Shown here: one piece after another, positions 951 to 37,579 of the stretch
Numbering within the stretch: the stretch's first letter is position 1
How the letters are laid out: each line of letters begins with the position of its first letter
Source of the DNA: Nemertoderma westbladi
Taxonomy: Eukaryota; Animalia; Xenacoelomorpha
Assembly (NCBI GenBank): GCA_032718475.1
Contig: JAUCBJ010005080.1
Coordinates: 1-37,709 of the forward strand
DNA: 37,709 bases
Direction of reading: 5' to 3'
Made by a program: the position numbers and the translations under genes
The notes under the pieces: model-generated
Databases searched by the model: none
What the model was told of the DNA's origin: nothing
What the model saw: only the letters and a program-made list of their open reading frames with translations

Positions 951-956
951 TTTATT
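951..956 (-). terminator. Candidate polyadenylation signal of the ADAM10-like prodomain gene
   Basis: AATAAA about 47 nt downstream of the TAA at 1005-1003. A second AATAAA lies at 881-876. The AT-rich context weakens this evidence. Confidence 0.45.
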
Positions 957-1002: not shown

Positions 1003-1070
1003 TTAAGGAGTAACGGCCATGCAACTGTAATGGGAACCAGTTGGTACCCATTGGCCATTGCGGTATAAAA
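1003..1070 (-). CDS. ADAM10-like: Putative terminal exon 5 of ADAM10-like prodomain gene (cysteine switch, then stop)
   Basis: Strong acceptor atttttatttattttttAG, phase 1. Encodes (V)LYRNGQWVPTGSHYSCMAVTP-TAA, which completes the HSV-I/L-Y motif and supplies a Cys at the cysteine-switch position. AATAAA lies on the minus strand at 956-951. Confidence 0.72.
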
Positions 1071-1362
1071 CTAAAAAATAAATAAAAATAATTCTGTTTT
1101 TTTGCCAATTTTATTTTCAATTTATATTTTATTTCATTAGGCCTGATTGTTAAACAGAAAGTTAATATTATCATTGAAATAATAATAAAAATTAATTATC
1201 ATTCCGACTTGTAAGTTATTCGAATCATTCTCAGAATATGTCTCGTATAGAATATGTAATATATAGTCAACTAGATATACTACTATATGCTGCTCAACTG
1301 CAGCATATAAAATACTAGGACTGCAGGACTGACTCGCAATAATTATTAATAGTTTATAATAT

Positions 1363-2194
1363 CGGTCGCTCAGCAGGTTTTAACTTTTCGGTCGAAATTC
1401 TACTGAAATTTTATATATAAAGAATTTGTAATTTTCCAAATGTATCCTTATTAACTGTTTTATGGCGCTTATTTCTGTCTTATAACCAGTATAGATACTT
1501 AAACTTATTCGTTTATTGTTTTGGTTGGAATCAGCCCTTCTGAAACCTGTGGATTTAGTGAAAACCTGCTACGGTATTCTTCACGGCCCATATGAAGTAT
1601 ACTTTGCAGTTTACCCCCATGTGAAGAATACCAGGTTTTCACTAAAACCACAGATTTCAGAAAGGTTGATTTTAACCAAAACAAAAACTAATATGTCAGG
1701 CCCGTAGCCAGTCGTTGGTTCGAACGAATCGCCCTTTTGAGAAAAGTGCCCTCACGCTCACATGTTTGGGGAATATGCCCTTTTTATAATCACCTTTTTG
1801 ACAAATACTCTCCTATTATATTCACCAATTCGTAAAAGTGCCCCCCCCCCCCCCCCCAAAGCAAATATTAAAGTTACATTAGCAGCTTTTCTTTAGCAGC
1901 AGATAGAATTCAGATTCACATTATGCCATGGCCAATGTGCTTTAAAAAGTACCCCCCGCCTAATTCCAACCTTAATATGCTCTGGACAAACCAATGGATA
2001 TTTGTCATTATTTAAACAAATAAAAAAAGTGCCCTTTTAAAGTCCTGGCTACGGGCGTGTATCTATAAAGGTTATAAGACAGAAATAAGCGCCATAAAAC
2101 AGTTAATAAGGATACATTGGGAAAAATACAAATACTTCATATATAAAATTCCAGTAGAATTTCGACCGAAAAGTTAAAACCTGCTGAGCGACCG
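1363..2194. mobile_element. Foldback/MITE (near-palindromic non-autonomous DNA element, family A)
   Basis: 1363-1487 is the reverse complement of 2070-2194. The inner arms (about 1517-1585 and 1621-1685) are also inverted. A related copy lies at about 14085-14330. Confidence 0.85.
1697..2059. mobile_element. Nested MITE with 15-bp terminal inverted repeats (hAT-like ends)
   Basis: Ends are CAGGCCCGTAGCCAG and CTGGCTACGGGCGTG, with internal AAAAGTGCCC repeats. It interrupts the right arm of the family A palindrome. No clear 8-bp TSD. Confidence 0.7.
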
Positions 2195-2532
2195 CTATTC
2201 ACTATTATAAATAATTAATAATAATTAGAAAATTAGAAATCTTGAAAAATTAGACTAAACTCCGTTCAAACATCCTGCTGCTGGTTGAAAGCTTTGATTT
2301 ACTTCATGTGGTATTTATTTTACTGATTGGCGGGCTTTATTTGGAGGTATTCAATTAATGTTTAACTAATTAATTTGGTTATTATACGACAGAATAAAAG
2401 TGGTCCTATCGTTATAAAGTAAGCAAACTCTAAACTAAATCGAATTTGCTTCCAGGGATTAACGTGTTTGGGTGCCTCCACATAATACAGTAATACTGTT
2501 AGTAGGCCTAATATAAGTAACACACGTCATAA

Positions 2533-2630
2533 ACCAATTGAGGGAAAGGAGCAGGTTACAGAGGCAGGCTTTTCTAACCAAAATAATAAATGGCCACTTT
2601 ACCAATTGAGGGAAAGGAGCAGGTTACAGA
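2533..2630. repeat. 30-bp direct repeat
   Basis: ACCAATTGAGGGAAAGGAGCAGGTTACAGA at 2533-2562 and 2601-2630. The AGCAGGTTACAGAGGC core recurs near 14655. Confidence 0.8.
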
Positions 2631-3153
2631 ACACTGCCCCAGCACTACTGTACAACTACCTAAAGTACCGGTACAGTACAGGTGGAGACCCTGAAACACG
2701 TTAGTCCCTCGCTTCCATCCACGCAGGAAACATTCGACAACCCGGGGGTGCAGTACAGAATAGTAGAAATAAATAATATCTTTAATACTTTTCGATAGCT
2801 GCAAGTATACTGCAAGACCACGATGACGATGTCTTCTTCATGCTTTGTAGCAAGAAAAATAAAACTAGAAAAGGGTTGGAACCAAAATCAAAGATTCCTT
2901 ACAATATTAATATAACCTCGTTACGTAGGTTAATTACAAAAAGTATATTTAATTTAGAATTAAATTACGTGTGCTGTACTCCACGGGAATCAACATGTTT
3001 GTTTATAATAAGTGACAGTTGACAGTACTCGTTTCAATTACATACCATTCATTATCAGAATACCTTAACTGTTTAAATATGAAAACCGCACATAGAGAGG
3101 ATATTATTATTAATTTTATATAAAATAATTGTTACGCAAATTGGTTATTATAT

Positions 3154-6100
3154 ATGAACAACAACTGGACAGACACTGCGTCGGCTGATTCTGGCTACGG
3201 AAGTCAACAGACGCCATCCAGTGGCAGCTCAGGGCATTCGAGTCATCTTGTATTTAATCGGCATAATAGGTCGTTATCCAATCACACACGAGCTAATAAC
3301 AGGTGGGCAGCCAATTCCACGAGAGATTCCGTTATCCAACATACTAGTAACACTACTAGTTATACAGCACCACCTAGCGGTGCTATTGTGAGACCGCGAG
3401 CGATCCACCCACCGCTTTGTTTCTATCCCGTTCGGGTGCCTAGCGACGGACAACTGTTCGGAGAACCCTGGACTCTGGGTTGCCCGAGTAACCAATTCTA
3501 TCACCTAGGCAACCCATCCATGTACGACGTGAGACACTCGCTACCGATGAGTAATTTGTCGTCGGCGTTCTGCGCCCCGCCGCGGTTCAATACGGGTCCG
3601 CTAGGTGGCGTGGTGGCGACAGAAACGAATTTCACTGAGATGCGAGGCGGAGAGAACGAGACCGCTCTGGACAATAAAGGCAAGAAGCGTGTTCTAAGCG
3701 TAGCAGGGTCGTCTGAGACCACTAGCGGGGTGTATCAGAGCGCCCCCTTGCGGCCAGGCCGGCCGTTGCACCACCACATGTATCCCACACACCCAACAAC
3801 TGATTCCCTTAGCGGCAGCAAGCGGTATCAGGGACTCGCGATGGGCCCCCCCAACGGAAGGTCAACTCACCGCCCTCCTATGGAGCCCTCCAGCAACCCG
3901 ATCCGGCACACTATGACGTCATCCTGCTCCACTTCCGGCACTCTCTATCCGGGTATGACATCACCCGGCTCCACCCCCACAACACCATACCCTGGTATGA
4001 CGTCATCCTGCGTCACTTCCGGCGCGCAGATCAAGCTGGAGCCGCAGTGGGCCTGCGACACTGCGACCTGGGGCGAGCCATCGACGTGGGGCGAGCCATC
4101 GAGCGACCGCCTCCCCCCGCTGGGCCACAGCTGGGAGGACTCGCCGGGCGGGGCCGAGCCGCCCTACAGCCGGGCCGACGACGCCTCGGAATGGGGCGAG
4201 CCATCGAGCGTGGAAGCCACCGAGTGCTGGTGGGAGGGATGCGCGATCGGGTTCGAGAGACTGGCGGACCTGGTCCGGCACCTCAACGCGGACCACATCG
4301 CCGCCGCCGACCGCAAGGAGTTTGTCTGCCGTTGGAGGGACTGCTCCCGCGAGCGGAAACCCTTCAAGGCGCAGTACATGCTGGTAGTCCACATGCGTCG
4401 ACACACCGGCGAGAAGCCGCACTGCTGCACGTTCCCCGCCTGTCGCAAGGCCTACTCCCGCCTCGAGAACCTAAAGACCCACGTCCGCTCACACACGGGA
4501 GAGAAACCCTACCTGTGTGAGGTGCCGGGCTGCGGCAAGGCCTTCAGCAACGCGTCGGATAGAGCCAAACACCAGAACCGGACTCACTCCAGTGCCAAAC
4601 CCTACGGCTGCCACATGTGCCCCAAATGCTACACGGACCCGAGCTCCTTGCGGAAACACGTGAAGACGGTCCACGGCCCAGAGGCGCATCTTACGAAACG
4701 ACAACGTAAAGACATGGTCGCTCCCAAAACCGAGTCTCACCCTGCGGATCCGAGCGGCTCTGTACAGCGCGTCACACCATTGGTCGGCGCCATGACAACG
4801 GCGTACCGTTACGCGGAGGAGCCCCCTGCTGCACTGAGCTCCGTTGACTCCTCCCAGAAGGGATTCCTTCGTCGCCCCATGGAGTTCCTCCGGAGGTTCA
4901 AAGTGAAGAAGGAATCCCTCGGGGAGGATCAAACTCCCCCCAATTGCGAGGTGATGACGTCATCCTACCCCGCGCAATGCCCCGCCGCCGGGGCAACCAT
5001 CCATTACAAGAGTAAGTCGCTAGGGGGCCTCATCGAGGGGATGGGTGTCCCCGGGTCCCGAAGGGGGAGCAGCAAGACGTCTGCGTACGAGTCGGGGGGC
5101 CAGTCGGACGAGGGGGGCACCAAGGGAGGCACCGAGGGGGCGGGGGAGGAGAGGTCGAGTAGCCCCAGGGGGGAGAGTGTGGCGTCGGTTAGGGTACCTC
5201 CGGTGGGGGAAACCGACCAATCGGGGGGCAGAGTCATAGCCGCCGAGGTACATGTGGGAAGCGATAGTCACCTTAGCAATGGTGGTAACCTTAGCAACCA
5301 CAGCAACGGTGGTAACCTCAGCAACCTTAGTGACGGAGTAAACATTACTAACTGTGGCAACCTTAGCAACGGTAAGCTAAGCAACCCGACGGCGGGGATT
5401 GACTGCGTGGGCGTTTTACCTCGGCCCACCGGGGAGCCCAACTGGGCGGACATCGGGGCGGAGAGCGTGTTGGAGTTGGGCGGTCCGACGCAGTTTACGG
5501 ACCCGGAGAACGCCTCGGTCAGCGACGGGACGCTCGACGACGACATCGTACTTCCGGCGGAAGTGAACCAGTTCATACGGGAGCGACGGGCGGCGGCGAG
5601 ACGGCAGCGGGACGAGTCGGCCAATAAGGGCGCCGAGCCGCGCCATCCTGTGTGCCGGCTGCCGGCGCAGCCGGCCTTCCACGGCGGCTACGGGCACGAC
5701 CCCAGTGAGCCGATCAACCACACCGTGGTCTGGTACCCAGTACCCGTACCTATGTTCCCCTACCAGACGGAACACACGCCCTCCTCGCCAGTCAACAGGA
5801 CCGGCTCGTTGCCTAGACAACTCTCACGTGTCTGTGAGCCTCTGATTGGCCCGGGCGTTGCCCTGGGCGACTATGAGGAGACCATGGTACAATCGATGAC
5901 CAGACTCAGTACGGAGGAGAACTCATCCATGTTGGTGGATAAAGGCGCCTCTAGCGGCAACGTAAGGAACTCGAGAAGATTCGGTGGTAACCGACTAACC
6001 ATGGAAACCTCGACCAATCAGACGCCGAGGAATCGCCTGCCCGCCTCTCAGTCGATGCCGGCATTCGACCAATCGCAACTGGTTTCGGACAATCCGAACC

Positions 6101-6498
6101 TCAGGATGTCGGGATTCCCACAACAAATGAATCAGGTGTTGTCACCCGGGCAACCGCATTACTTCAACCAATCGGGTCAGCAGGTTTACTTGACTCAGCC
6201 GCCGGTATATCCGAGGCAACCACAGGGCCAGCAGCCCCACAGACAGATCCAGCAAGCCAACAACCCCGGAATGTACGGGGGAATGGCGCCCCGGGAAAGT
6301 ATGCTGAGTCCCCCGGGGGGGCCACAGAGGGGGCTAGTGAGCCCCCTCGGGCTGGTCGGTGAGAACCCCAGGTTCCCCCCGCGGGGGGTGGTGAACACGA
6401 ACAGAGGTCAGTTCGCAAATAACTCCAACCTCATGATGAGTACAATAGGAGAGAGTAACGGGAATTACAACGAATATTTGCACAGAGGAAATCGTTGA
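3154..6498 (+). CDS. GLI: Gli/Cubitus interruptus family C2H2 zinc-finger transcription factor, single uninterrupted ORF (1114 aa)
   Basis: Five tandem fingers (about 4225-4674) with Gli signatures: [76 protein letters not shown]. The downstream [14 protein letters not shown] resembles the Gli2/3 DDLVLPDDVVQY motif. The ORF is GC-rich in AT-rich flanks. Confidence 0.96.
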
Positions 6499-6884
6499 GA
6501 CACGATAGGCAGCCTATAAGCCGTGGTGGATTCAATCTGCCACAAACAGACATTGAGTCCGCTGTCCGCATAACTATCGATTAATAATTAATAATGAAGC
6601 AATAACCCAAGCATGATTAAATTTTAATGATATTAGTAAACATTTACTCGTAGACTTAATATAATATAAAGGCTTGTTTTGTTACCTAATATGCAATGTG
6701 AATCTTTATTGTAGAAGAAATGTAGATAATTACGTATCGCAACTAATTCTAGTTATATATATTTTATTTCAATTTCATCAGTCTAACAACATTAATATTA
6801 TTATTATTAAATAAAATTTGAAAGTATGGTTGTAATTTACTCGAAAACAACATCATTTAGTTATATAATATTTAAAGGGACTAG

Positions 6885-6968
6885 AGAGACCAGGGCTCAA
6901 CTCTTTATTACATCCTTAAATGGTAGTTAAGTGAGTAGCAGTTTCCTTTGGGGAGTAGAGTTGTGGGT
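6885..6968 (+). mobile_element. Degenerate SINE core fragment
   Basis: catccttaaatggtagttaagtgagtagcagtttcctttggggagtagagttgtggg matches the core of the SINE at 34330-34605. Confidence 0.7.
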
Positions 6969-7317
6969 TGTTGCTTTACTTTTTGTTGGTGCAAATGAAA
7001 GTAATGGAAAATGAAAGTAATTTGGTATTTATTCCTACGGAGTTATAACAGTTTCTAATAAAAAATATAATTTAGAGATTTACAACGACTTCTACTTGGT
7101 ATATATTTATTCCATAATAGTAAGATTTCTTACTTTATTTAACATCAAAAGGCGAAAATAATTGATACGATACGATACAAAAGCTAATATCGATGAAAAA
7201 ATACTGAGATTATTTTAATAATGTTAATATTATAATATGATACAAAATAGAAAATTTGATTTCGTATAAATGCATTACATTGCGGGAAGGATAAAGACAG
7301 ACTTGTTTATAACTTAC

Positions 7318-7455
7318 CACTGTGGTACATCGAGTCCAACAGACTTGGGTGCGAGGCCGTTGACTCAATGTAATAGGTTTCGTCGGGAGTGTGAATAGTT
7401 CCTTCGAACTGGCCATCGGTGTCTATAGTGCCGTAGACGTAGGAATCTGAACCGC
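7318..7455 (-). CDS. ADAM10-like: Exon 4 of ADAM10/Kuzbanian-like prodomain gene
   Basis: Acceptor tgtatccctAG, donor G|GTAAGT, 138 nt, phase 1 to 1. Encodes GSDSYVYGTIDTDGQFEGTIHTPDETYYIESTASHPSLLDSMYHS, which resembles ADAM10 DGRFEGFIQT..GTFYVEP...FHS. Confidence 0.92.
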
Positions 7456-8362
7456 CTAGGGATACAACATTTTATGTTTTATTTTTAAAGAAACGACTGC
7501 CACCTGGTACACTAACTACTTAACGTTTACTCAATCACTATTGGTGGAGTAGGAATACCGCTAAGTCACTTCAGACCCATTGAATCTATCAATTCAAGGG
7601 TCGTAATGGTTGTAACATTATATGGTAATCCCAATAAATATATCCAACAGTCCAACCAATGCATAATAATACCAGAACAAGCAGTCAAGTTTAGTGAAGA
7701 TCTGACTAGGGCTGTAAGACAGGAAACAGCTAAGCTACATTTATTTATACTTTAATCCGGGTGTCTTTTTTACTCTTTTTTTAGATATTTTTCATTTATA
7801 TTAAACAATGAATATTATTTATATTCTAGAGAGAAAGGCGTTTTGAGCTGCAACGTCTAGTTGTATTCATTAACAGTCGCAGATGGATTTTCAAATTGGA
7901 AATTCAATATTTTGACTAGAGAAAAAAGTTCCAATATTTTTATAAGTTACGGCCTTTCGAACTTTTGACTCCAGATCAAATCGAACTTACTCAAGTTCAC
8001 GTGCTGCGCGACGCCCCACGAACGTGTTTTTTTCATAATACAAACAAATCGAACAATTGTTTTCTAAAAAAGAAAAAGTTTCACCTTCACACCGCATTTT
8101 TCACATAATTTGCCCTATGTTTCGGCCTAAAATTGATGAAAAATTGTTCCCATTATTATGAGTATATCCATCATGACCCGTATATAATAGTGTTTTCTGA
8201 TGACCTACCCCCCCCCCCCCCCCCCCATTTTTTCTAGAAATTTTTATTATATTGCTTGAAATTTGAAACACAACTAATGCAACTCACCGTGCCGGTTAAG
8301 GCAGAGTCATACTTTTCTATTTTCAATTTAAAAAAAATTTCAAAAAAAGTGACTTTGTGGAA

Positions 8363-10128
8363 TTTTACCCTTCGTATCGCCGCCATTACTCACATTTAGT
8401 CGTGATTTTACCCTTCGTATCGCCGCCATTACTCACATTTAGTCGTGATTTTACCCTTCGTATCGCCGCCATTACTCACATTTAGTCGTGATTTTGCCCT
8501 TCGTATCGCCGCCATTACTCACATTTAGTCGTGATTTTGCCCTTCGTATCGCCGCCATTACTCACATTTAGTCGTGATTTTACCCTTCGTATCGCCGCCA
8601 TTACTCACATTTAGTCGTGATTTTACCCTTCGTATCGCCGCCATTACTCACATTTAGTCGTGATTTTGCCCTTCGTATCGCCGCCATTAATCACATTTAG
8701 TCGTGATTTTACCCTTCGTATCGCCGCCATTACTCACATTTAGTCGTGATTTTACCCTTCGTATCGCCGCCATTACTCACATTTAGTCGTGATTTTACCC
8801 TTCGTATCGCCGCCATTACTCACATTTAGTCGTGATTTTGCCCTTCGTATCGCCGCCATTACTCACATTTAGTCGTGATTTTGCCCTTCGTATCGCCGCC
8901 ATTACTCACATTTAGTCGTGATTTTACCCTTCGTATCGCCGCCATTACTCACATTTAGTCGTGATTTTACCCTTCGTGTCGCCGCCATTACTCACATTTA
9001 GTCGTGATTTTACCCTTCGTATCGCCGCCATTACTCACATTTAGTCGTGATTTTACCCTTCGTATCGCCGCCATTACCCACATTTAGTCGTGATTTTACC
9101 CTTCGTATCGCCGCCATTACTCACATTAAGTCGTGATTTTGCCCTTCGTATCGCCGCCATTACTCATATTTAGTCGTGATTTTGCCCTTCGTATCGCCGC
9201 CATTACTCACATTTAGTCGTGATTTTGCCCTTCGTATCGCCGCCATTACTCACATTTAGTCGTGATTTTACCCTTCGTATCGCCGCCATTACTCACATTT
9301 AGTCGTGATTTTACCCTTCGTATCGCCGCCATTACTCACATTTAGTCGTGATTTTACCCTTCTTCGTATCGCCGCCATTACTCACATTTAGTCGTGATTT
9401 TACCCTTCGTATCGCCGCCATTACTCACATTTAGTCGTGATTTTACCCTTCGTATCGCCGCCATTACTCACATTTAGTCGTGATTTTACCCTTCGTATCG
9501 CCGCCATTACTCACATTTAGTCGTGATTTTACCCTTCGTATCGCCGCCATTACTCACATTTAGTCGTGATTTTACCCTTCGTATCGCCGCCATTACTCAC
9601 ATTTAGTCGTGATTTTACCCTTCGTATCGCCGCCATTACTCACATTTAGTCGTGATTTTACCCTTCGTATCGCCGCCATTACTCACATTTAGTCGTGATT
9701 TTACCCTTCGTATCGCCGCCATTACTCACATTTAGTCGTGATTTTACCCTTCGTATCGCCGCCATTACTCACATTTAGTCGTGATTTTACCCTTCGTATC
9801 GCCGCCATTACTCACATTTAGTCGTGATTTTACCCTTCGTATCGCCGCCATTACTCACATTTAGTCGTGATTTTACCCTTCGTATCGCCGCCATTACTCA
9901 CATTTACTCGTGATTTTACCCTTCGTATCGCCGCCATTACTCACATTTAGTCGTGATTTTACCCTTCGTATCGCCGCCATTACTCACATTTAGTCGTGAT
10001 TTTACCCTTCGTATCGCCGCCATTACTCACATTTAGTCGTGATTTTACCCTTCGTATCGCCGCCATTACTCACATTTAGTCGTGACTTTACCCTTCGTAT
10101 CGCCGCCATTACTCACATTTAGTCGTGA
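8363..10128. repeat. Homogeneous tandem satellite, 41 copies of a 43-bp unit
   Basis: Unit TTTTACCCTTCGTATCGCCGCCATTACTCACATTTAGTCGTGA. 1766 bp = 41 x 43 plus one 3-bp insertion near 9360. The main variant is TTTTG versus TTTTA. Confidence 0.97.
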
Positions 10129-10372
10129 TTTTTAAGAAAGCTTCCGTTACAAGGATTCCAAATCTTTAAAATTGTTATGAAACAGCTGAGATATAGTCGT
10201 TCAAAGATTGCAAGAATTATCGTTATACTAAATCTCCAGCCTGTTATATACCCCGTAGGAACTTTTTATATGAGCTGCCCCACATAGATGTTTAGTACAG
10301 ATACGGGAGATTATAAATAGTTTGGGTTGACTTCACCAAACGGTTGCGCTGGTGTCTTAAACATAGCAACGG

Positions 10373-11268
10373 AGGAAATTGCCATAGTAACAGCTCTTAT
10401 AGTAGATACAGTGGCGAGTAACATTTATAGCAGATTAATATTTTGGATATCAAGAATTTAATGGCATATTTAGTTGTTTGAAAATACCATAGCAACCAAG
10501 TTAAAACGACCTTCAAATTAACAATATTGTCAATATCGATTCCATAGCAACGGGCTTTAAACGCTCGTAATGCATGTAGTATAGTGTTTAAACGGGTAAA
10601 GTGAATGCTGTTGCTCAAAACCCGCCACATATACTAATAACATCTTAAATGTCAAAAACTTATTGTTTGAAAGAATCTTATAAATTGGAATAAAAGTAAA
10701 ACATATTCCTTATACTCGATGTAGTTGGGGTGGAGGTTGATTTAATGACGCTGCGGCTAAGATATAGACCATTTCGAGTCAAAGTTACCCGTTGCCATGG
10801 CAACTACAACTGAAAAATAGAGCATATTGTTCGTTATCCTTAATATATTGGTGGTAGACTCGATGCCATGACGCTACGACCACTACATTATTAGTGTTTA
10901 AACGGGGTCAGACTTTTCGGGATCGGGACCGGGATTTCCACTCTCAGGATCCCGTTTTACGGGATGGGGATTGCAATTTTTGATTAAATTCCCTAAAGTT
11001 ATTACTATATCTGGCGGGTTTTGAGCAACAGCATTCACTTTACCCGTTTAAACACTATACTACATATGCATTACGAGCGTTTAAAGCCCGTTGCTATGGA
11101 ATAGATATTGACAATATTGTTAATTAGAAGGTTGTTTTTACTTGGTTGCTATGGTATTTTCAAACAACTAAATACGCCATTAAATTCTTGATATCCAAAA
11201 TATTAATCTGCTATAAATGTTACTCGCCACTGTATCTACTATAAGAGCTGTTACTATGGCAATTTCCT
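10373..11268. mobile_element. Non-autonomous DNA element with about 265-bp terminal inverted repeats
   Basis: 10373-10641 (AGGAAATTGCCATAGTAAC...) is the near-perfect reverse complement of about 10999-11268. No transposase and no obvious TSD. Confidence 0.9.
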
Positions 11269-11604
11269 GTAAGCCGGTAAGTTGTACTACCGCAGCTGGG
11301 CAACAATGCACTGCCTATAATAATAATTAATACTAGTACGTAGTGCCGTACGTACATATAGATAGATATTCATACATAAGCAAAACACAACGTTCTAGAA
11401 CATGGTTTATTTACTACCGGGAAATTGATTGAAGAAACATATTTTGGGAAAACTCATATCCCTAGAGTATGGACTTATAATCCGAAAATGGTTAAATGGT
11501 TAACACCCGTTCTTATAACATGGGCTCTTACGCTTGGAGTCTCAGAATCGCAGATAGATTTTAATTAGCCCGTAAGGTTTAGAGTTTGGGTGATTTTGAA
11601 AATA

Positions 11605-11735
11605 AGCCGCCGATTTCTATGGATCAATTTGAAATAAATATTGGACTGGGGCAACACCCATGGAGAATCGGAAAGTCTGGGAGGATTTAATTTCCAATGT
11701 CCGAGTCCGCTCGAACTAGTTGTAGTAGGAGGTAG
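11605..11735 (+). mobile_element. Degenerate 3' fragment of RTE-clade LINE
   Basis: atggagaatcggaaagtctgggaggatttaatttccaatgtccgagtccgctcgaactagttgtagtag matches the 3' end and (TAG)n tail of the LINE at 12283-13900, in opposite orientation. Confidence 0.75.
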
Positions 11736-11756
11736 GAGTTCCGTTTACCCACTCAC

Positions 11757-11938
11757 CATTAATGCTCCCCTGGTAGACATTATCAGCGTCCCAAGTAGTT
11801 TGTTCTCCGTTTAACTCTATGATGACGTCATCGCTGACTATATGGGGGTTGTGACTGAGAACTAGGTCGAAAGGTTTGGCGAATGCTTTAAAGGAGAGAT
11901 AAACTACAGGGCGTGACGGTTCGCTCGAGGCAACAGAT
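11757..11938 (-). CDS. ADAM10-like: Exon 3 of ADAM10/Kuzbanian-like prodomain gene
   Basis: Acceptor ctttatttacAG, donor G|GTGAGT, 182 nt, phase 2 to 1. Encodes SVASSEPSRPVVYLSFKAFAKPFDLVLSHNPHIVSDDVIIELNGEQTTWDADNVYQGSING, with the reprolysin propeptide pattern L.F.A..+.F.L.L...Y.G. Confidence 0.9.
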
Positions 11939-12282
11939 CTGTAAATAAAGGGAAGAGTTTAGATATAAACTACACGTAGTCTATTAGGTCATCGGATCGC
12001 ATCTGTTTACTTACAATCATGGTGGGGGGCGGGGGGGGGGGGGGGGGTAACTTAGAGGAAACACAAGAACACAAGTACCGATAGCTATAGTTAATAGTTG
12101 CTCCCAGATAACGGTATTAAAATGTGAAAAAATAACAAGCTTCCTTGGGGACATCCAATCATAAGTAAGTACGGTGGCCGGTAGAACTGTCATAGCGAAA
12201 AATATAAACCGACCCTATAGAGGGCCGAACCCGGTCCCTATTGGTTTCAAAGTTACTCATATCATCCGCACATTGAGGAAGC

Positions 12283-13900
12283 ACTACTACTACTACTAAG
12301 TCGAGCGAACTCGGACAGTGGAAATGAGATCCTTCCAGGCTTCCCGATTCTCCAACTACTACTACTAGGTCGAGCGAACTCGGACAGCGGAAATGAGATC
12401 CTTCCAGGCTTCCCAATTCTTCAACTACTACTACTAGGTCGAGCGAACTCGGACAGTGGAAATGAGATCCTTCCAGGCTTCCCGATTCTCCATAGTTGTC
12501 GCAATTTCGTTTCTCCCAAGTTCAGTATCCCTTTCAAGTTGATCTATATATGTTATGGCCGGTCGTCCACGACTACGCTTTCCATGAGTTGGTTGCCAGG
12601 AAAGTAGATCTGGTAAGACCTCGTCTTTACTTCGCCAGCAGTGCCAACTGAATCTTAATCTGCGTTCACTGAGGGTGGTTGATACAGGTGGTATTGTACC
12701 ATAAAGCTCGGCATTTGTCATGTGTTGTCTCCAGCTGATGTTTAGGGCTGCCCTTAGTAGTCTTGTGTAGCAACCATCAATTCGTTGTTCAAGTGATTTA
12801 GTCAGTGTCCAGGTCTCACCCCCGTATAAAAATACACTTTCCACTGTGGCTCGAAAGAACTTGGTCTTCAGGTGCCTGGAGAGATCTGATTTCCAGATGG
12901 TATCCATTTTTGATAGAGCTACCCAAGCCTTTGCTTTCCTAACTTCTATGTCCTTTTTGCTATTCTCTATCCATGATCCAAGGTACTGGAAGTCGTCAAC
13001 CTTCCTTAATTGATTATTATCAATGGTTGTCAAGTTTCCATCAACATTAAAGGTCATGAATTCGGTCTTTGTAGCATTTATATACAATCCAACCTCCTTA
13101 GCAGCCCTCTCCACTTTATTTAGTAAAAGCTGTGCATCTGCTAGCGTATTAGAGAGCAGGGCGATGTCATCCACAAAGTCGGTGTCTGTGACTGTAGTTG
13201 CCGGATATCTACTACTTCTGAGTTCTTGAAGTGTGAATCCCAGATATTCACCCTTTGTAGCCGTCCTCATTGCGTAATCCAGCACAATTACAAATAGTAA
13301 TGGTGTAAATGTGTCACCATGCAGTACCCCAGCCAGGATTGAGAAAAACTCAGTTTCACCATCTGGTGAGAGTACCTGCGCTTCTGTGTCACAATATAAC
13401 ACTCCAATGCCAGCAACAATTACTTCTGGTATTCCATAAGCTCTTAGGATTTCAAGCATTTTACCTCTATGGATGGAGTCGAATGGCTTCTTGAAGTCCA
13501 CAAAAGTCATGACTGCGGGGAGATTCTTCGACTTAATTCCTTCAATCAGTCTCCTTAGCGCAAGTATCTGAGCTATTGTTGATCTATTTGGTTGATCTAC
13601 GTTTTGGATCTTACGCAATAGTTTCTCTATGTGAGGCCTAATCCTATATAGAATCATTTTATTGTATATTTTGGCAGCTACCACAAGCAGACAGATCCCA
13701 CGATAGTTTGTTGGTATGCCGACTGCCGAGGTCTCCTTTCTTGGGGAGAGGCTTTACTTGACCTTTAGTCCAAATTGGTGGTGGCTTTTCCCCTTTTAAC
13801 ATCCGGTTGCAAACATTCAATAATGGTCTGTTTAGCACTCCTGTTTTCCATACCTCCGCTGGGAATTCATCTAATCCACTCGCTTTATTATTGGACATGC
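12283..13900 (-). mobile_element. 5'-truncated RTE-clade non-LTR retrotransposon (RT pseudogene) with triplicated 3' end
   Basis: RT motifs FVDFKKPFDSIHR, GVLHGDT, DFVDDIALL, FQYLGS and an RTE-type C-terminus (RRLRFSWHCWR...RGRP). Frameshift near 13690 to the upstream KASGLD...PLPKKGDL segment. (TAG)n tail directly at the stop codon. Confidence 0.93.
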
Positions 13901-14084
13901 TTTTTTATTGCACAATAAGTATATATATAATTTCGTTTTCTAGTTATGTCTACAAAAGTTATAAATTTCACACTAATCTTGGATACCAGGATACCTCCTT
14001 TCATTGCAGCACCATATTCGACAAAAAGTACGCCTCAGGCGGACGACGATGTGAAGAATACCAAATTTGAACTTTCGCCTTTGA

Positions 14085-14330
14085 GGTAAAAATTTTATGG
14101 TGGAATTTTATATATGAAGATTTTTTATTTTTATTAAATGTATCTTTATTAAGTGTTTTATAGCGCTTATTTCTGTCTTATAACCTGTACATATACTAAT
14201 TCGTTTATTGTTTTGGTTAGATTCAGCTCCTTCTGTAACCTGTGTTTTTGGTGAAAACCTGGTATTCTTCACATGGGGGTAACTGCAAAGTGAAATATAA
14301 CGGCAGAAAGTCAGGTACCGGTATTCTTAA
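14085..14330. mobile_element. Partial copy of foldback family A
   Basis: gcgcttatttctgtcttataacc...tcgtttattgttttggtt...gtgaaaacctggtattcttcac matches 1400-1640. Confidence 0.75.
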
Positions 14331-14394
14331 CATGGGCCGGTGAGGCGGTTGCCAGGCAACATTCAAACAAACACGACGGCAACAAACAACCTAC

Positions 14395-14473
14395 TTGCTA
14401 TGGTGGTCGAGCAGCTTATCTTTATCATAGGCTAGACCTTCGTAGTGCTGAATATATTCGTTGAGAGTCTCAC
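14395..14473 (-). CDS. ADAM10-like: Exon 2 of ADAM10/Kuzbanian-like prodomain gene
   Basis: Acceptor ttattttccAG, donor AA|GTAGGT, 79 nt, phase 1 to 2. Encodes GETLNEYIQHYEGLAYDKDKLLDHHSK, which resembles the ADAM10 prodomain start (LNKYIRHYEGLSY). Confidence 0.9.
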
Positions 14474-15358
14474 CTGGAAAATAACCAAAAAAGTAACCAA
14501 CCAGCAGCCACGGCCCTCTACAAAGTTACTACTAGGTGTATGGTAGGTACTTGCAACAACCCAGAATGATGAAATTCACACGTATCGGCGAATCCTCAAC
14601 GGCAAAGGCTACTGACCGGACCCATTGCGATTTAAAGGAGTAGGTTAGTAAAGAAGCAGGTTACAGAGGCGTGTTGTGGGAACCAAAACAATAAACGAAA
14701 GTTAAAACATGTTTCAAGATTATGGGTCCAGTCACAAAGTTGTGGTAATAAGGGGGCCGGTCAATAGGTAAAATATAAATCAAATATAAAGCTTCAATAC
14801 GGTATTTAGAGGGTCCGGTCAGTAGCCATTTCCATCCTCAACAATCTTCTTCAGGGAGAAATCTACGCAACTAATAGTTGTTAACTTCCAAAAATTATTC
14901 TTTAACCTGTGTTATTGACTTTTGTTTATTATTACTTTGATTAGAAAAAAGTGCCACTGCAGCACTGTAACCTGCTCCAGTGCTCCTTTTCATGAATCGA
15001 TGATTTGGTGTCATTATCATCAAACAAGAGAACAAAAAATCAATGAAAAATGGTTAACGAAAACATCTGTTCAATGTAATAAAAGGCCAATTATTATGAC
15101 GATAAATAGATAAATAAAATATGTAATACCGATATGTAAAAATAAATTACCCCCCATATAGCAGGATTCAATATTTAACACGTTCATTACGGTACTAAAT
15201 CTTCAACGTAAATACGGCGCCTGATAGAAATACTGAAATATATACGCCTAATATTTCAGTTTAAGAGTAAAATATTTCTTAGTAGGGCCTACCGTACCCG
15301 CGTACCGGTAGGCTTATATAAAGTTTATTTAATAATAATAAAATAATCAGAAACTTAC

Positions 15359-15422
15359 CACTGACGACAGCTAATATCGATAGCAATAACAACGATTTAC
15401 CGATGTTATACCAAAAGGCCAT
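15359..15422 (-). CDS. ADAM10-like: Exon 1 of ADAM10/Kuzbanian-like prodomain gene (signal peptide)
   Basis: ATG at 15422 gives MAFWYNIGKSLLLLSILAVVS-G, a hydrophobic signal-peptide-like stretch. It ends in phase 1 at a G|GTAAGT donor (64 nt), compatible with exon 2. Confidence 0.8.
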
Positions 15423-19032: not shown

Positions 19033-19803
19033 ATGGATCTACCAGAATTAGAAAACATGTTCCCCATATTTCCTTCTACAAAGGGGCATTATCAACAGAT
19101 AGCGAATGTGCGCAGAAATTTTTTGGAGGATTCCACGGAATACATCCAAAATGAGGCGTTTTACTCCGCCGACGTGGAGAGCATCAAGCGGAAGGATTAT
19201 TGGGTTTGGCGATACATTCGCCACAATCGCAAAGCAGTCGATGTTTGCAGCGCCGCCGCGAGGAACATCCAGAAAAACTTCCTTTGGCGAAAAAAATTTG
19301 GTGTTAAAAACGCGATGAATCCGTCGAAAGTGAACGAGCTGCTATCGAGCAACTGTTTTGCTTTAGGGGAAGTCGATGATGCTGGCAACAAGATATTGAC
19401 CATAAGAAACAGACTCTACCACAAAAAACAAAGCGAAGATGCGAAACATCTGGTCATATTTATCATTGAGAATGAGATGTTGAATGAAATCGACGATGGC
19501 TCGAGATTGACGGTGTTATTTGATATAGACGGCGCAGGGATTAACAGTTTCGATTTCGGGCTGTTCAGTTTTACAGTCAAATGCCATAAGAGTTTATATC
19601 CAGATCAGTTGGCTTATATTCTTGTAAGCGAAATGCCGTATGCATTCGCAACAACGTGGGAGTTATTCAAGAATTTGATTGTAGGTAAACGCTGTGCGCA
19701 GAGCATCAGGTTTGTGGCTGAATTGGAGCTTATAAAGTATGTGGATAAAATACAGCAATGGGCGGCTGAAAAGAAGATTGCGTTGAGTGCCAACGATAAT
19801 TAA
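19033..19803 (+). CDS. CRAL-TRIO/Sec14 domain protein, MOSPD2-like N-terminal domain only (256 aa)
   Basis: DYWVWRYIRH...FLWRKKFGV (CRAL-TRIO_N), DDAGNKILTIR, LTVLFDIDGAGINSFD, YPDQLAYILVSEMPYAFATTW. An in-frame acceptor tttcAG at 19013-19014 suggests an upstream exon. Confidence 0.85.
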   Translation: MDLPELENMFPIFPSTKGHYQQIANVRRNFLEDSTEYIQNEAFYSADVESIKRKDYWVWRYIRHNRKAVDVCSAAARNIQKNFLWRKKFGVKNAMNPSKVNELLSSNCFALGEVDDAGNKILTIRNRLYHKKQSEDAKHLVIFIIENEMLNEIDDGSRLTVLFDIDGAGINSFDFGLFSFTVKCHKSLYPDQLAYILVSEMPYAFATTWELFKNLIVGKRCAQSIRFVAELELIKYVDKIQQWAAEKKIALSANDN

Positions 19804-20198: not shown

Positions 20199-20936
20199 TT
20201 TTGACACCAAAAAAGACCATCAAACCCCCAAAAACTTTTGTGATATCTTCAGAATCAGCGCCGAAAATTAACCTAGGTATCAAAACCATAAAACATTTTT
20301 GAAAAAATTTCTAATGCGTTTAGTTTTGGTGCTTGTTCGGTCACTTGTAATCAGGAGAAAATCTTAATGCAATTTTTCTCGCGTTTGCTTTTTTAGGACA
20401 CTTTCTCTATCTACCATTTAACTACGCAACCGATTTTCTTTCTGTTTTGCAGAATTATGTAGAGGAATATTCTACCTCAAAATTTTGTTGATATAATTCT
20501 GAAATTTTGTTTCATAAAAAAGTAATGTGATTTTTCGTTTCAAAAGAACGAAACGTTTTTTGAAACAAAATTTCAAAATTATGTAAACATAATTTTTGGG
20601 CGAAATATTCCTCTACATAATTCCGCAAACAGAACGAAAATCGGTTGAGTAGTGACGATAGAAGTAGAAAAAGCAGACAAACTTTTGTTTGTCTGCTTTT
20701 TGAATACTTTTTGGTAAAAAATACCAAAAAAGCTAACACGAGAAAAATTACATAAAAATTTCCTCCTGATTACAACTGACCAAACGTTCCAAAAGTGAAC
20801 ACTCTTCAAATTTTATAAAAAATATTCTTCTTTTATGGTTTTAATACCTGTAGGGTGATTTTCGGAGCTGATTTCGAAGATAGCAAAATAGTTAGAAATT
20901 TTTGGGTGTTTGATGGTCTTTTTTTGTATCAAAAAT
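20199..20936. mobile_element. Degenerate foldback (whole-length palindromic) element
   Basis: Inverted arm pairs: aaaaaagaccatcaaac/gtttgatggtctttttt, gtaatcaggag/ctcctgattac, aattatgtagaggaatatt/aatattcctctacataatt. The centre is near 20545. Confidence 0.85.
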
Positions 20937-21186: not shown

Positions 21187-22343
21187 TGTACGCGCTTTTG
21201 AAGACCTTTAGCAGTTTAACCTGCCAAAATTTATATGTCTTTTGGTTTATAAATAGACTTTAGAAAATGACAAGTATTTAATACCAATAAACACAACATT
21301 AGCCGAAGCCAGCCTAGTGCGCGTCCATTCACCCGCTGGATATACCCGGGAGACTGGATTCGGAGGGCTTAGATTGTTATTGCAGTGTAAGCTTACTGTA
21401 TTATTCGATTGATCGTTAATAAATAATTTCTGACCAATATTATTCACTTTCGGGAAATATTAACAGTTCCTTTAGGACGTGGCGCTCTATCTAGGTAAAC
21501 AGAGATATGACTTATACCAAACACAACGGTAAGTCGGTAAGGCTTATGATTCACGTATGAGGCGCATTCTTTAGGAAATGCTTAGTTATCAGTCACAATC
21601 ATGCACACTACCGGTAACACACAATACTGCACACTAATTTGCCGACCGTCAATGAATTTTATCATATATAAAGAGAACAGCAATTGACTCATGTAGTGCT
21701 TATCAAATAGCATTAAATTCACTACAAACCACAATAATATAAGTCGCAATCGCTATATGTAACCCGTCTCTCTAACCTGTAGTGTATCAAGAAAATTGGG
21801 AAATTTGGGTTCTTTATAGATGTTCTCCAGATAATAATATTCAACCATAACACAACAGTAAATAGCAGTATAATAATGTATGTTGCAGTGATATAAGACT
21901 ACTGCTGATTGCACTGATTGTACTGGACCGATAACAGTTATACGCTCTATAATCTAAGCCTACTAATGTTTCTTCTAAAGTCTGAAACGAATTGACTCTA
22001 GAGCCGGTGTTCCTGGCCTAGATAGAAACAACACAACAGTATCCTGAAAAACAGTAAGACTGAACACTCCTAGCACGATCTGCCAAATATCTCCACATCG
22101 ACAGAAAAAATCGCTCTGATTGGCTGTTAAGCTAAACAAAGAACCATGTGTCCAATGGCCGTTTCCATGTCAGCAACCAGCTGTTAGATGTCGTAATCTG
22201 AATCATCAAGGCTAAGCTGTGCCAGGGTATTTGACGCATTGCGAGTTTTTTGCCTTACCATGTCCGCCAAAGCACACATATAGAAGAATGACTTTTATGT
22301 CCGTTAAAACACCTATAACGGTAGCTTGCGGGCGAGGGGGACT
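21187..22343 (-). repeat. 3' LTR
   Basis: On the + strand it starts TGTACGCGC and ends GGGGGACT (CA changed to CT). Direct repeat of 32418-33552. Confidence 0.9.
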
Positions 22344-22446: not shown

Positions 22447-23895
22447 TTAGCCTTTCTTGCGCGGACGGCGTTTATGCAGTTTTTTAAAGCTGGCCAGAGT
22501 CCTTTTCTCTTTGGGGCGAGCCACCTTACAAGGAGGGCTATAACTCCTGGGTGAAGGGTGCAATATAATTGCATCAGAGGGTATAGGATTATGGTCGGTG
22601 TATCCGCCAGTCGAAGTGCCGGGTTGATTGACATCAACGTCGGGGGAGCGGGGTCTAACGGCTTTGAGAGCGCGTTTTAAGACAGCCGCTCTTACGGGTC
22701 CTTTACGAGTGGTCTGAACGAGAGCCGTGGGTGGACCATAGGCAGTTAGAAACCTCCGGGGTTTAATGGTTCTTTCCAACTCGCGTTCGCGGGCTCGGTA
22801 TTCGTAAGGCCGTCGATATACTTCCTGTAACTCGGGGTGTGAGTTAACAAATAAGTCTCCATAGTCCGGATCCTGACGGATATAATTGATTAAGTTATAG
22901 GAATGAAGGTCGCTAGGATTAACACTCCTGAGAAATTTGCGTACGAACTTGGTTGAAATACATTCTCCGACGCGCTTCAGTAGTTCGTAACTCGATATGC
23001 GTGATTTCTGTTCGACAGAAGCGAATAGATAAGGATGGAACGCATAAACTCCTTCGTAAGCGCGTCCAGGATAATAGCGATGGCGCGAATCACAATGTAA
23101 ATCAGCGTTCGCTTCCCAAGCTCTGATGTAACGTAGTGTGATCATTTCATCTACGCTTTCCAAATCGTGATTAAAAGGGCAATCGAAACTGGCGTGTCCC
23201 TTTAGTTGACAATGGTGACATTAAGTCATAAATTGAGGGCAAACCGCAAAAATGTGCAAGTTATTGAGTCTGCAATATGCACAATAAATTTCCATCACCG
23301 GTTGTTCGTGGAAATAGGAACAGCGGACGTTTGTGTCCATGGGCGTAACATGGTCTCTCGATGCGCATAACCGACAACGTTGCCGAGAAACATAGTTGGC
23401 ATGGCGATAATTGTACGCAGTGAGACACTGTGGACCTTGATACCATTCTAGGATGTAATCGTTGTCGCTGTTCCGGGCGCGATAGGCTGAATCTCCTCAG
23501 ATTCTAGGCATATTGGTTCTTCTTCCCAGTCTGTTATGAATAGAATTTTCGTGATCTATTCTCGGTTTATCATTACGACTCCACTGGGTATGATATTTAA
23601 ATAGAACCATTTCCCTTTCGGTGTCTACATCGTCCGTATCATGTAAATCGATAGGATGGCCGGTAGTTAGGAAGTCCATATACGTACTATTACGATGCGT
23701 ATAGCGAGCGGTGAATTTTCGATAGTCCAATTCACGCGTAAGTTGCTCTTGGGACATCGGCGGTTCGATATAACGACCATCATCCTCCGTAATGGTTGGA
23801 TCAGTTTCACCGCGTATCAAGCTATCCACAAATGCTTGTAAAGGTAGAGTATATCGCTCCCTGATACCAAGATCATCTTCTATCAACTCCGTCAT
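22447..23895 (-). pseudogene. Accessory ORF of the LTR element (483 codons, two in-frame stops) with three CCHC zinc knuckles
   Basis: ORFs 23497-23895 and 22447-23163 are in the same frame. Reading through TGA (23499-23497) and TAA (23223-23221) gives CRLCASRDHVTPMDTNVRC, CAYCRLNNLHIFAVC and CHHCQLKGHASFDC. The C-terminus is basic (KKLHKRRPRKKG). Confidence 0.8.
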
Positions 23896-24711
23896 ATCTG
23901 CTATCTGAGTTTATTAATATCGAAATGAGTTTATGTTTAGGCGAGTGGACGTCGCTGCCTACCTCTCTTTGCCCCCGGACAGTGGGATTCTCAGCGCCGA
24001 TGTACCGTCGTCGCGGTGTTTACGCCAACATGTAGCAACAGCACGACAACGATAACCGGCACAAGTCACTCCACTGTCCGTCCCAAAGGCTTGAATCCAC
24101 TTTAGGTTCTTTCTATAGGAGAGTTGGGCTACTTTCACAATTGCGAATAGCTACTGTAAACATACTTTAGCAGTAACATTCACCTATAAACGCACAAATT
24201 CCACACAACTGTCACCAATTGTACACATACAGGCCATTTGTCCGTTAGTCAGTGCCTTCCAGAATGTCACGTTATTACTGTGTATCTTTGGATACTAACA
24301 GTGTGCTATGTATTCTCTATGCTATGCAATGTGACAAGCTTTCTATTGTTCCTTTAACTTGCTTCTAATTCTAGCGTGGGTGTTGCTATGATGACATTAT
24401 GGAAAGCTAGCGGTAGAATTAGGGTAATTCTCATGCATACAGATCTGGAATGCTATTTAATAGTAATTCTTTAATTGTCAATATCCTCTTTATACATGAT
24501 TTTATTAATTTTATTAGCTATTGACTATATGTCGGAGATTCTCGCACTCTAATACACTCAATATGATGAATCTCCGCTCCCATGATCTATTAATTAATGG
24601 AATTTTGGGAATGTTATAAATTGCACAAAATGACAATTTATGAAATTCATTTAAAATATGAATTTAAATTTATTCCCGTGAATTTTATTATTTGATAGTA
24701 CAATTGACACA

Positions 24712-30181: not shown

Positions 30182-31511
30182 GTTTAGCTATACAGTTGAA
30201 TGTCTACTGCTATAGTTACAGTTAAAGCAAGTCTAGTAATTCAGTATGACCGTTGGCCTAGTACCATTAATTTATTACAGTATATTAGAATATCGGTATA
30301 CACTTATAATATATATAGGTATTGTAAACTAGTTTTGTCACAGAGTACCGGTATATAATTTTAGCACAAATATATATAAATATATAATAGGCCTATCGTG
30401 AATACCGGTATACAGCTTACACTGATAGTATATATAAGTATAATTATGAACTAGAATTAATTACAGAATACCGGTATGATTTCAGCTCAAATTTATAGAA
30501 ATAAATATAATAAGCCTATGGTAAATACTGGTATGTCAATTATTTTAGAATAATTGAATTTCTGAATATTTTAGGGTTACTTGGTTACTTTAACTTACTT
30601 TGTTACCGTTATTTAAGCAGTAGTCCAACTGATATTGAGACCTAGTTGTTGTATGGCAGGCCTACTATTTATAAATCGTTTGAGTTGATTTAAAATATTT
30701 ATATACCCGTTTAAAAGGGGTTTTTTCAATATTTGAAATAAATGTTATTATTTCTGGGGAGAGTCACTACACAGAAGCTGTGCGCCCTCAGTGGAGTGCT
30801 ACTTATGGGACACTAAAACAGATAATTCTAATTTACCTAAGTTACTTAATACTACAAATTACTTACGATACGGGTGAGATTAAATCTCTAATTAAACACA
30901 ACAAAAATATTACGTACGAAATTTTTAGGGTAATTTCACAGGAAGTCTACAAACCAGCCTAACAAAGGGTTAGAATTCTGGTTATTACAACGGACAGGGT
31001 ACTACGGTATTTGAAATAATAAGTAGTAGTAAATATATTGCACTGTCCAGATAGGAAGATACCACCGCCTGACGACCTATAACCGTATCGCTATAGGTAC
31101 TACGTTATGTATCACGGAGTGTTCCTACCTAGAAGTTAATTACCGCGGACTACCAGATCCAACGTGCCTATTAACCACTTTACAACACAAATATACTGCC
31201 TACACACTAATTACCCTCGGAAAGCACTGTACACTAAACCCTAAATTAGGTACAAGTACTGGTACAACAATAATCAGTAGTTAAATATACTTGAACAGTT
31301 AAAAGAACCACGGCATCTGCTGGAGTGACCGAAGCACAAAGTCACCAGTCTTTTCCTATGCCAAGCAGCCCGTGTAGTACCGGGGTTAATTTAACTATAA
31401 CGGTATGTGTAACAAACACAATTACTGTAGGAATAAACTTGGGGACATGAATGTTGCGAATAATCGCATAAACTCTGAATAATAAATATTACGCTACCCG
31501 TACAGAATACT

Positions 31512-37562: not shown

Positions 37563-37579
37563 CACAAAAATAAAATATT

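Follow-up and report, generated by a model that had tools for sequence, protein, structure and literature searches.

According to PMC9863580, which cites Moss 2007, the recombinant prodomain of ADAM10 inhibits potently and competitively, and the stretch that precedes the switch Cys occupies the cleft (PMC12184519). In human ADAM10, residues 48–51 form the upstream furin site, and replacement of this site left basal shedding like that of the wild type (PMC9863580). For ADAM17, a prodomain with the upstream site mutated is furin-resistant and still inhibitory, and the R58A change alone worsened the IC50 from 145 to 307 nM (PMC5159831). In the literature searched, which covers few subscription papers, we found no natural gene that encodes an ADAM10 prodomain only. 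Here, we analyze a predicted gene of this kind in a 37,709-nt stretch of the Nemertoderma westbladi genome (contig JAUCBJ010005080.1), the whole of which we refer to as the window.

Gene model and likeness to the ADAM10 prodomain

The original prediction described a minus-strand gene of five exons with GT-AG sites, phases 1,2,1,1 and a terminal TAA, and all of these elements are present where they had been placed (table 1). The spliced open reading frame comprises 531 nt and 176 codons, none of the codons split at the four junctions is a stop, and exons 1–4 are free of stops, frameshifts, and broken splice dinucleotides. Exon 2 is one of four open AG-79-GT candidates and exon 3 one of two open AG-182-GT candidates; in each case it is this candidate whose translation matches the earlier model. 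Splice sites were scored with a rough consensus matrix with untrained weights, and donors were ranked among the 2,199 minus-strand GT sites. The donors of exons 1–4 (GTAAGT, GTAGGT, GTGAGT, and GTAAGT) map to percentiles 99.3, 95.6, 99.4, and 99.3, and the acceptors of exons 2–5 map to percentiles 100, 99.8, 79.5, and 99.5 with the same rough matrix; seven of the eight sites lie above the 95th percentile, and the exon 4 acceptor is mediocre because of its value of 79.5. The four introns measure 885, 2456, 4301, and 6247 nt, and introns 1 and 3 presumably match human ADAM10 introns 1 and 3 in position and phase. In exon 1, in-frame stops are found upstream of the ATG, and an N-terminal signal peptide is predicted from hydropathy: a basic residue precedes a hydrophobic stretch in which the 9-residue value peaks at 3.2 over residues 11–20.

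Table 1. Coordinates of the predicted exons and of neighboring features in the window
Feature	Position	Strand	Description
Exon 1, coding part	15422-15359	-	64 nt; ATG and predicted signal peptide; phase 1 at end
Exon 2	14473-14395	-	79 nt; N-terminal piece of ADAM10-type prodomain
Non-LTR retrotransposon reverse-transcriptase fragment	12434-13753	-	Intron 2; 439-codon open frame; Pfam RVT_1, E 4e-26
Exon 3	11938-11757	-	182 nt; prodomain core
43-bp tandem array	8362-10132	.	Intron 3; 41 copies, 98% matches
Exon 4	7455-7318	-	138 nt; prodomain beta-strands
Gli2/3-like transcription factor gene	3154-6498	+	Intact, intronless, 1114 aa; antisense within intron 4 (6247 nt)
Exon 5, coding part	1070-1003	-	68 nt including TAA; sole Cys; extends conserved motif opened at exon 4 end
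AATAAA, candidate polyadenylation signal	951..956	-	46 nt past stop
Second AATAAA	881-876	-	Motif

To compare the product with ADAM10, the human prodomain printed in bioRxiv 10.1101/2025.01.13.632885 was used as reference, and identities were counted by eye, without an E-value. Over exons 2–4 and the exon 4/5 junction, 41 of 133 residues are identical in a colinear by-eye alignment with a single gap; these comprise 13 of 25 in exon 2 and 12 of 60 in exon 3 (both ungapped), 14 of 45 in exon 4 (one gap), and two of the three residues at the exon 4/5 junction. When the exons were scanned singly against Pfam, exon 3 weakly matched the reprolysin propeptide model PF01562 (E 8.4e-4, 20.3 bits, cut-off 23.7), exons 1, 2, 4, and 5 did not match PF01562, and exon 4 did not match any Pfam family. 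The model of exon 4 alone has three strands plus one helix at a pLDDT of 80, the fold predicted for exon 3 alone reaches a pLDDT of 54, and the single-exon fold models had no significant structural match in the PDB. The colinear alignment and the weak match of exon 3 support, at the level of sequence, the proposal of an ADAM10-type prodomain, here preceded by a predicted signal peptide. The ADAM17 prodomain presumably differs in the segments that are shared with ADAM10, and the provisional assignment to ADAM10, as opposed to ADAM17 or a third branch, leans on this difference and on the by-eye match to the human protein.

Searches for homologs of single exons yielded little. Neither of the two candidates found with exon 4 alone was confirmed, nor was any of the four found with exon 2 plus its intron flank; exon 3 had two matches among 1.84 billion representatives, both of them repetitive chance matches; no relevant PDB entry was found by sequence with exon 2, 3, or 4; and none of 599 pattern matches in prokaryote genome contigs was confirmed.

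Furin sites, cysteine, and 3' end

The four residues that align with human ADAM10 residues 48–51 lie at the exon 2/3 junction and do not include Arg; exon 2 contains no Arg, and no dibasic pair is found inside any exon. None of 93 candidate microexons that could restore the upstream furin site was convincing, and this proprotein-convertase site of ADAM10 is absent from the gene model. As for the boundary furin site, the stop comes first, and R-x-K/R-R does not occur in any minus-strand frame left of 1070. Absence of the upstream site fits an inhibitor; it argues for one weakly, because human ADAM10 with this site replaced had basal shedding like the wild type and the R58A change alone in ADAM17 worsened the IC50.

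The stop was confirmed to fall five residues after the only Cys of the predicted protein. This Cys is located 16 residues into exon 5 versus 19 at the matching place in human ADAM10, and we regard it as a candidate cysteine switch. Its neighbors are not conserved relative to human ADAM10, and because identity fades after the first few residues of exon 5, the Cys may be there by chance. The acceptor of exon 5 ranks second among the 345 AG sites left of exon 4, and the motif that is continued in exon 5 is given in its strict form by 14 of 2,179 AG sites in the window. By our arithmetic from these two counts, an acceptor this good that also gives the motif has a chance expectation of ~0.01, or of ~0.1 if acceptors in the top 5% are allowed. 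Four open, internal-looking alternatives to exon 5 exist left of exon 4; none of them gives the motif, and three are antisense within the Gli gene. Exon 5 lacks a good donor before its stop, as all eight GT/GC sites there score at or below the 77th percentile.

The coding score of exon 5 is unremarkable (null fraction 0.15), and the 46 nt past the stop score as slightly coding-like once the frame is shifted (null fraction 0.027 for the best of three frames, with post-stop controls of 0.146 for Gli and 0.56 for CRAL-TRIO), as expected if a longer exon had been frameshifted. AATAAA does follow the stop, with starts at 956 and 881; this is weak evidence for polyadenylation because the local background on the minus strand is 2.9 per kb, at which we estimate that one such motif is expected within 100 nt about a quarter of the time. 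GC content drops from 0.46 to 0.21 across the AATAAA at 956, and exon-like GC persists for ~46 nt past the stop. Good donors are present further left at 832 and 479, and the transcript may therefore splice onward; in their open frames the pieces that end at these donors have acceptors at or below the 91st percentile, and the frames scanned have no family match. A 19-nt piece ending at the 479 donor is unlikely to be a further exon, as five such pairs occur in the window and its use needs a poor exon 5 donor that skips the Cys. A likeness of exon 5 to read-through of the exon 3 donor was also discarded (E 0.73, running into a retroelement tail).

Neighborhood and the nested Gli gene

The surroundings of the ADAM10-like exons are rich in mobile elements. 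The introns had been described as filled with transposable elements, which is too simple: intron 4 is mostly taken up by the Gli gene, intron 2 contains the reverse-transcriptase fragment, presumably of the RTE type, and intron 3 contains the 43-bp array.

The Gli gene encodes C2H2 fingers according to Pfam, including a GLI-type finger block, and among the best 120 of 2,683 matches the finger region is 72–74% identical to proteins named GLI2/GLI3. We also find what we take to be degron-like, PKA-like, and C-terminal Gli motifs in this open reading frame, and AATAAA occurs at 6810 and 7057. A metagenome scan with the Gli fingers gave 155 relatives, 80 of which were kept (best full-length match 71%), and none of these 80 has the ADAM exons (best E 0.08). 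In the metagenomes, several Gli-like loci align piecewise, with breaks near query residues 425 and 480 that we read as introns, whereas the gene in the window is intronless. The finger block is like that of GLI2/GLI3, and what distinguishes this locus is the intronless gene and its antisense nesting. A glass sponge as the host would fit the abundance of nested and single-exon genes in Aphrocallistes (PMC10282587); against it speak the mean intron lengths of 194 and 516 bp for the two scaffolds compared in that paper, and the best 120 of 2,683 matches included no close Gli.

No HExxHxxG catalytic-type motif was found in the six frames of the window, no ADAM family match in 30 frames left of Gli, and neither catalytic, disintegrin, Cys-rich, or membrane exons of ADAM10 nor a second copy of any of the five exons in the window.

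Readings of the locus and comparison with known systems

We tentatively favor a functional prodomain-only product from this locus, predicted to be a secreted inhibitor, as a possible reading of the sequence; about as plausible are a truncated copy and a normal gene of which these exons form the front half. A young ADAM10 copy, truncated or frameshifted by partial duplication or by a disabling change in exon 5, not yet decayed and without a working product, is in our view somewhat less likely than the favored reading. The original prediction took the intact frame as an argument against a decayed pseudogene; the frame is indeed clean over 531 nt, but a young truncated copy is compatible with this, and decay has little to act on in 531 nt and eight splice sites. 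Such a copy would also match the fading of identity to ADAM10 after the first exon 5 residues, the exon-like GC and the coding-like shifted frame past the stop, and the many mobile elements nearby. It sits less well with the undamaged exons 1–4 and with the place of the break, which comes right after a Cys near the switch position and shortly before an AATAAA.

Alternatively, exons 1–4 could be the start of a normal full-length ADAM10 that continues, with its real next exon and the catalytic exons, beyond the left edge of the window. The exon at 1070 would then resemble the next exon by chance, be left over from a duplication, or serve as an alternative end that is not used. We consider this alternative slightly less likely again, given that the 1070 exon joins an acceptor in the top 0.5% with the motif (the chance expectation given above), that the upstream furin site is missing, and that the pieces ending at 832 and 479 combine modest acceptors with no family match in the scanned frames. 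On the other side, the window extends 1002 nt to the left of the stop and the introns span 0.9–6.2 kb, so catalytic exons may lie further left; exon-like pieces could go on leftward from the good donors at 832 and 479, and the divergence from human is what would be expected of a distant ortholog. An assembly error in exon 5 of a working gene, a minor variant of the truncated-copy reading, is disfavored because no frame stays open as far as the next GT at 940, and the only possible donors would be two GC sites at 972 and 964.

If the prodomain-only reading is correct, the five exons would produce a small secreted protein consisting of a signal peptide and a prodomain that ends five residues past its one Cys and lacks both furin sites, and this protein would hold an ADAM10/17 enzyme encoded elsewhere inactive by clamping its catalytic domain. 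By analogy with known ADAM biology, the mature chain of ~154 residues would fold as the prodomain beta-barrel of the kind seen in ADAM17 (PMC12184519) and pack on the metalloprotease domain, the segment before the Cys would lie in the active-site cleft, and the prodomain would stay bound because furin could not cut it. The source may be a dedicated paralog or a short isoform, and a second candidate function for the same protein is that of a folding chaperone in the ER. Approximately 35 C-terminal prodomain residues are missing from the predicted protein, and the ADAM17 counterpart of this stretch is implicated in inhibition (PMC12184519). In its most specific version, the prediction is of a gene dedicated to a secreted, furin-proof ADAM10 prodomain, which would act as a natural protein brake on Notch and growth-factor shedding or as the chaperone part of an ADAM10 split in nature, and which has the Hedgehog effector Gli nested inside; this version appears doubtful. 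If real, a prodomain-only gene would give the animal an endogenous sheddase regulator, specific to the family, which evolution has shortened and deprived of the furin site, and such a gene would put to the test what part of the prodomain suffices to inhibit or chaperone. Otherwise, with a truncated copy or the front part of a normal gene, the finding reduces to an intronless Gli gene nested in an ADAM10 intron, which is mildly unusual.

Compared with the ADAM10/Kuzbanian prodomain (PF01562), the predicted protein shares the signal peptide, the colinear prodomain, and a single Cys near the switch position; human ADAM10 runs 40 residues past this Cys to the boundary furin site, whereas the protein predicted here stops after five and has neither furin site. 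In the propeptide-only snake venom metalloprotease genes of Echis and psammophiines, the same M12B family has its propeptide expressed without the enzyme, owing to a stop codon in Echis and an apparent frameshift in psammophiines (PMC8742412). Those propeptides belong to the venom metalloprotease branch, and the ones tested are neurotoxins, in contrast to the ADAM10-like sequence here, which has no copy in the window and nothing venom-like. The functional model proposed here is that of the I29 propeptide-like inhibitors (CTLA-2alpha, crammer, and BCPI), free-standing propeptide-like proteins that inhibit and can stabilize the cognate protease (PMC4089206); they concern another protease family, the papain-like cathepsins, and we claim no homology. 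The engineered ADAM17 inhibitor TPD likewise is an isolated prodomain acting in trans that becomes furin-resistant on removal of the upstream site, but it was made in the laboratory, covers the prodomain in full (Asp23-Arg214), and owes its potency gain to removal of the Cys, which is kept here (PMC5159831). Since propeptide-only genes are already known among snake venom metalloproteases and cathepsin inhibitors, the gene described here, if real, would be a variation on an existing theme.

Gene Model and Identity of the Product

All five predicted minus-strand exons of the ADAM10/Kuzbanian-type gene are present in the sequence, totaling 531 nt in the compatible phases 1, 2, 1, and 1 with no stop among the split codons, and are separated by introns of 885, 2456, 4301, and 6247 nt. 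Coordinates for exons 2 and 3, absent from the original prediction, were picked from the open AG-GT segments of the predicted sizes, of which there were four and two, respectively. By a rough, untrained consensus matrix, the four donors lie at the 95.6–99.4 percentile among 2199 GT sites and the acceptors of exons 2–5 at the 100, 99.8, 79.5, and 99.5 percentile.

Features of the window
Feature	Position	Strand	Remarks
Exon 1	15422-15359	-	
Exon 2	14473-14395	-	
Exon 3	11938-11757	-	
Exon 4	7455-7318	-	
Exon 5	1070-1003	-	
Gli2/3-like gene	3154-6498	+	Intact, intronless, 1114 aa; antisense, fills most of intron 4
CRAL-TRIO gene	19033-19803	+	Intronless, 256 aa; Pfam E 5e-15
Direct repeats	21187-22342 and 32418-33551		~1.15 kb, 93% identical; bracket 11-kb stretch
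gag-protease-like frame	25553-30187	-	1544 codons; DUF1759 and aspartyl protease; between direct repeats
Non-LTR reverse-transcriptase fragments (2)	12434-13753 and 36317-37581	-	
Inverted repeats/self-complementary stretches	10373-10641 with 10998-11268; 1503-1696; 20199-20934		97%; 76%; 68%
10-bp unit arrays	35595-36317 and 37582-37709		

Exon 1 has signal-peptide-like hydropathy. Scanned singly, exon 3 hits the reprolysin propeptide model PF01562 under the curated cut-off (E 8.4e-4), and exons 1, 2, 4, and 5 gave no match to it. Sequence searches with single-exon queries retrieved no homologues, and structure predictions of single exons were uninformative on the product. Against the human ADAM10 prodomain as printed in bioRxiv 10.1101/2025.01.13.632885, identities counted by eye are 13/25 in exon 2, 12/60 in exon 3, 14/45 in exon 4, and 2/3 for junction residues, that is, 41/133 overall with one gap, which makes an ADAM10-type prodomain very likely; the putative assignment to ADAM10 rather than ADAM17 draws on this by-eye human match and on ADAM17 differing in these segments, rather than on a tree.

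Authenticity and End of Exon 5

Of 345 AG sites lying to the left of exon 4 (i.e., at lower coordinates), the exon 5 acceptor ranks second, and the exon carries on, in correct phase, the short motif that comes next in human ADAM10; with the strict motif produced at 14 of the 2179 AG sites of the window, such a coincidence is expected by chance about 0.01 to 0.1 times. Human likeness fades past the first residues, and the single Cys lies 16 residues into the exon compared with 19 in human ADAM10. The codon score, in which a low null fraction denotes a coding-like stretch, is unremarkable (0.15); because exons 1 and 2 are likewise unremarkable (0.25 and 0.12), this test is weak.

In human ADAM10, 40 residues separate the Cys from the boundary furin site, whereas the Nemertoderma product stops five residues past its Cys. 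The AATAAA predicted behind the stop is present, starting at 956 and 881 on the minus strand, and at 956 GC content falls from 0.46 to 0.21; the hexamer is, however, frequent locally (2.9 per kb). Neither a catalytic motif nor an ADAM family match was found in the window, but only 1002 nt of it lie left of the stop. The prodomain-only interpretation is plausible but unproven. The likelihoods given here are judgements, and we place that of a functional prodomain-only product somewhat below an even chance.

In a shifted frame, the 46 nt after the stop resemble coding sequence (null fraction 0.027, compared with 0.146 and 0.56 after the stops of the Gli and CRAL-TRIO genes), which counts against a clean terminal exon. 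A young truncated or frameshifted copy, or an assembly error, is judged a little less likely than the functional product. The eight GT/GC sites that precede the stop in exon 5 all score at or below the 77th percentile (best GT, 1047), and the stop is followed by GC sites at 972 and 964 and then a middling GT at 940, ahead of which all three frames are shut. Good donors left of the stop at 832 and 479 likewise count against a clean terminal exon. That these exons form the front part of a full-length gene, with exon 5 a look-alike, is judged about as likely as a truncated copy. The minus-strand pieces ending in those donors (479–498 and 832–872) have mediocre acceptors and short open frames, and are possibly UTR exons or additional exons belonging to something that extends beyond the window.

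Nested Gli Gene, Neighbors, and Repeats

The original prediction overlooked the content of intron 4, mostly a Gli gene whose zinc fingers share 72–74% identity with proteins that bear the names GLI2 and GLI3. Several Gli-like metagenome loci match it in separate pieces, so its intronless state looks unusual; it may reflect intron loss or a retrocopy. GC3 is 0.69–0.80 over most of its length, higher than in the ADAM exons (0.43–0.60) or the CRAL-TRIO gene (0.52). ADAM exons were found beside Gli in 0 of 80 retained Gli-like metagenome loci, all too distant to bear on conservation of the nesting. Nested genes constitute 12.4% of genes in Aphrocallistes and typically 5–10% in animals (PMC10282587); being common, nesting accounts for the size of intron 4 and implies no shared function. 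An exact 30-nt direct repeat with CCAAT (2533–2562 and 2601–2630), situated ~550 nt before the start of Gli, is possibly a promoter element.

The CRAL-TRIO gene is oriented divergently to the ADAM10 start, 3.6 kb apart, and Atlas neighbors of its protein are named CRAL/TRIO or motile sperm domain protein 2-like. The 11-kb stretch and its direct repeats resemble an LTR element that carries additional 3' genes, and we take the gag-protease-like frame to be of BEL/Pao type; no reverse transcriptase frame was seen in this stretch. Further minus-strand frames at 22447–23910 contain Cys-His clusters and have no Pfam matches. A 69-bp repeat at 12286–12492, adjoining the first non-LTR fragment, recurs at 11651–11731 directly past the exon 3 donor. 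The inverted and self-complementary repeats are probably MITE-like, and a dispersed repeat related to them lies at 1340–1584, 2059–2217, and 14079–14291. The right end of the window falls within a 10-bp array, as is often seen at contig ends.

Furin Sites, Proposed Mechanism, and Known Propeptides

Human ADAM10 carries an upstream convertase site at residues 48–51 and a boundary site at about 211–215 (PMC9863580). The four residues aligned to 48–51 span the exon 2/3 junction and include no Arg; the five exons together encode two Arg, and no dibasic pair occurs within any exon. Among 93 symmetric candidates for a furin-site microexon in intron 2, seven terminate in Arg and none pairs a good acceptor with a good donor. 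An ADAM17 prodomain with its upstream furin site mutated is furin-resistant and still inhibitory with a slightly worse IC50 (PMC5159831), the upstream-site mutation abolishes shedding in full-length ADAM17 (PMC12184519), and ADAM10 with the upstream site alone replaced shows wild-type basal shedding (PMC9863580). Given these mutants, the apparent loss of the site here fits an inhibitor but is also compatible with a working enzyme.

The five-exon message, if made, would direct its chain into the secretory path with loss of ~22 residues. If the ADAM17 zymogen structure (PMC12184519) is a guide, the chain would fold as a beta-barrel and pack on the metalloprotease domain, the segment preceding the Cys sitting in the cleft; we infer every step past the sequence itself. 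Recombinant ADAM10 prodomain is a competitive inhibitor (PMC9863580), and the prodomain doubles as a folding chaperone (PMC5355436); because a prodomain without furin sites would not be released, an inhibitor is favored over a chaperone. The predicted protein ends ~35 residues short of a complete prodomain, and in ADAM17 this missing C-terminal part has been implicated in inhibition (PMC12184519).

No natural prodomain-only ADAM10 was found in the literature searched, and each of two glass sponges is reported to have two ADAM10/17 proteins with the usual domain architecture (PMC10970066). Within the same protease family, snakes have evolved propeptide-only genes on at least two occasions, the enzyme part being cut off by a stop codon or, apparently, by a frameshift (PMC8742412). 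For cathepsins, free-standing inhibitors that resemble propeptides are already established (PMC4089206). A prodomain-only ADAM10 gene in Nemertoderma, if real, would be a variation on this already known propeptide-only theme.
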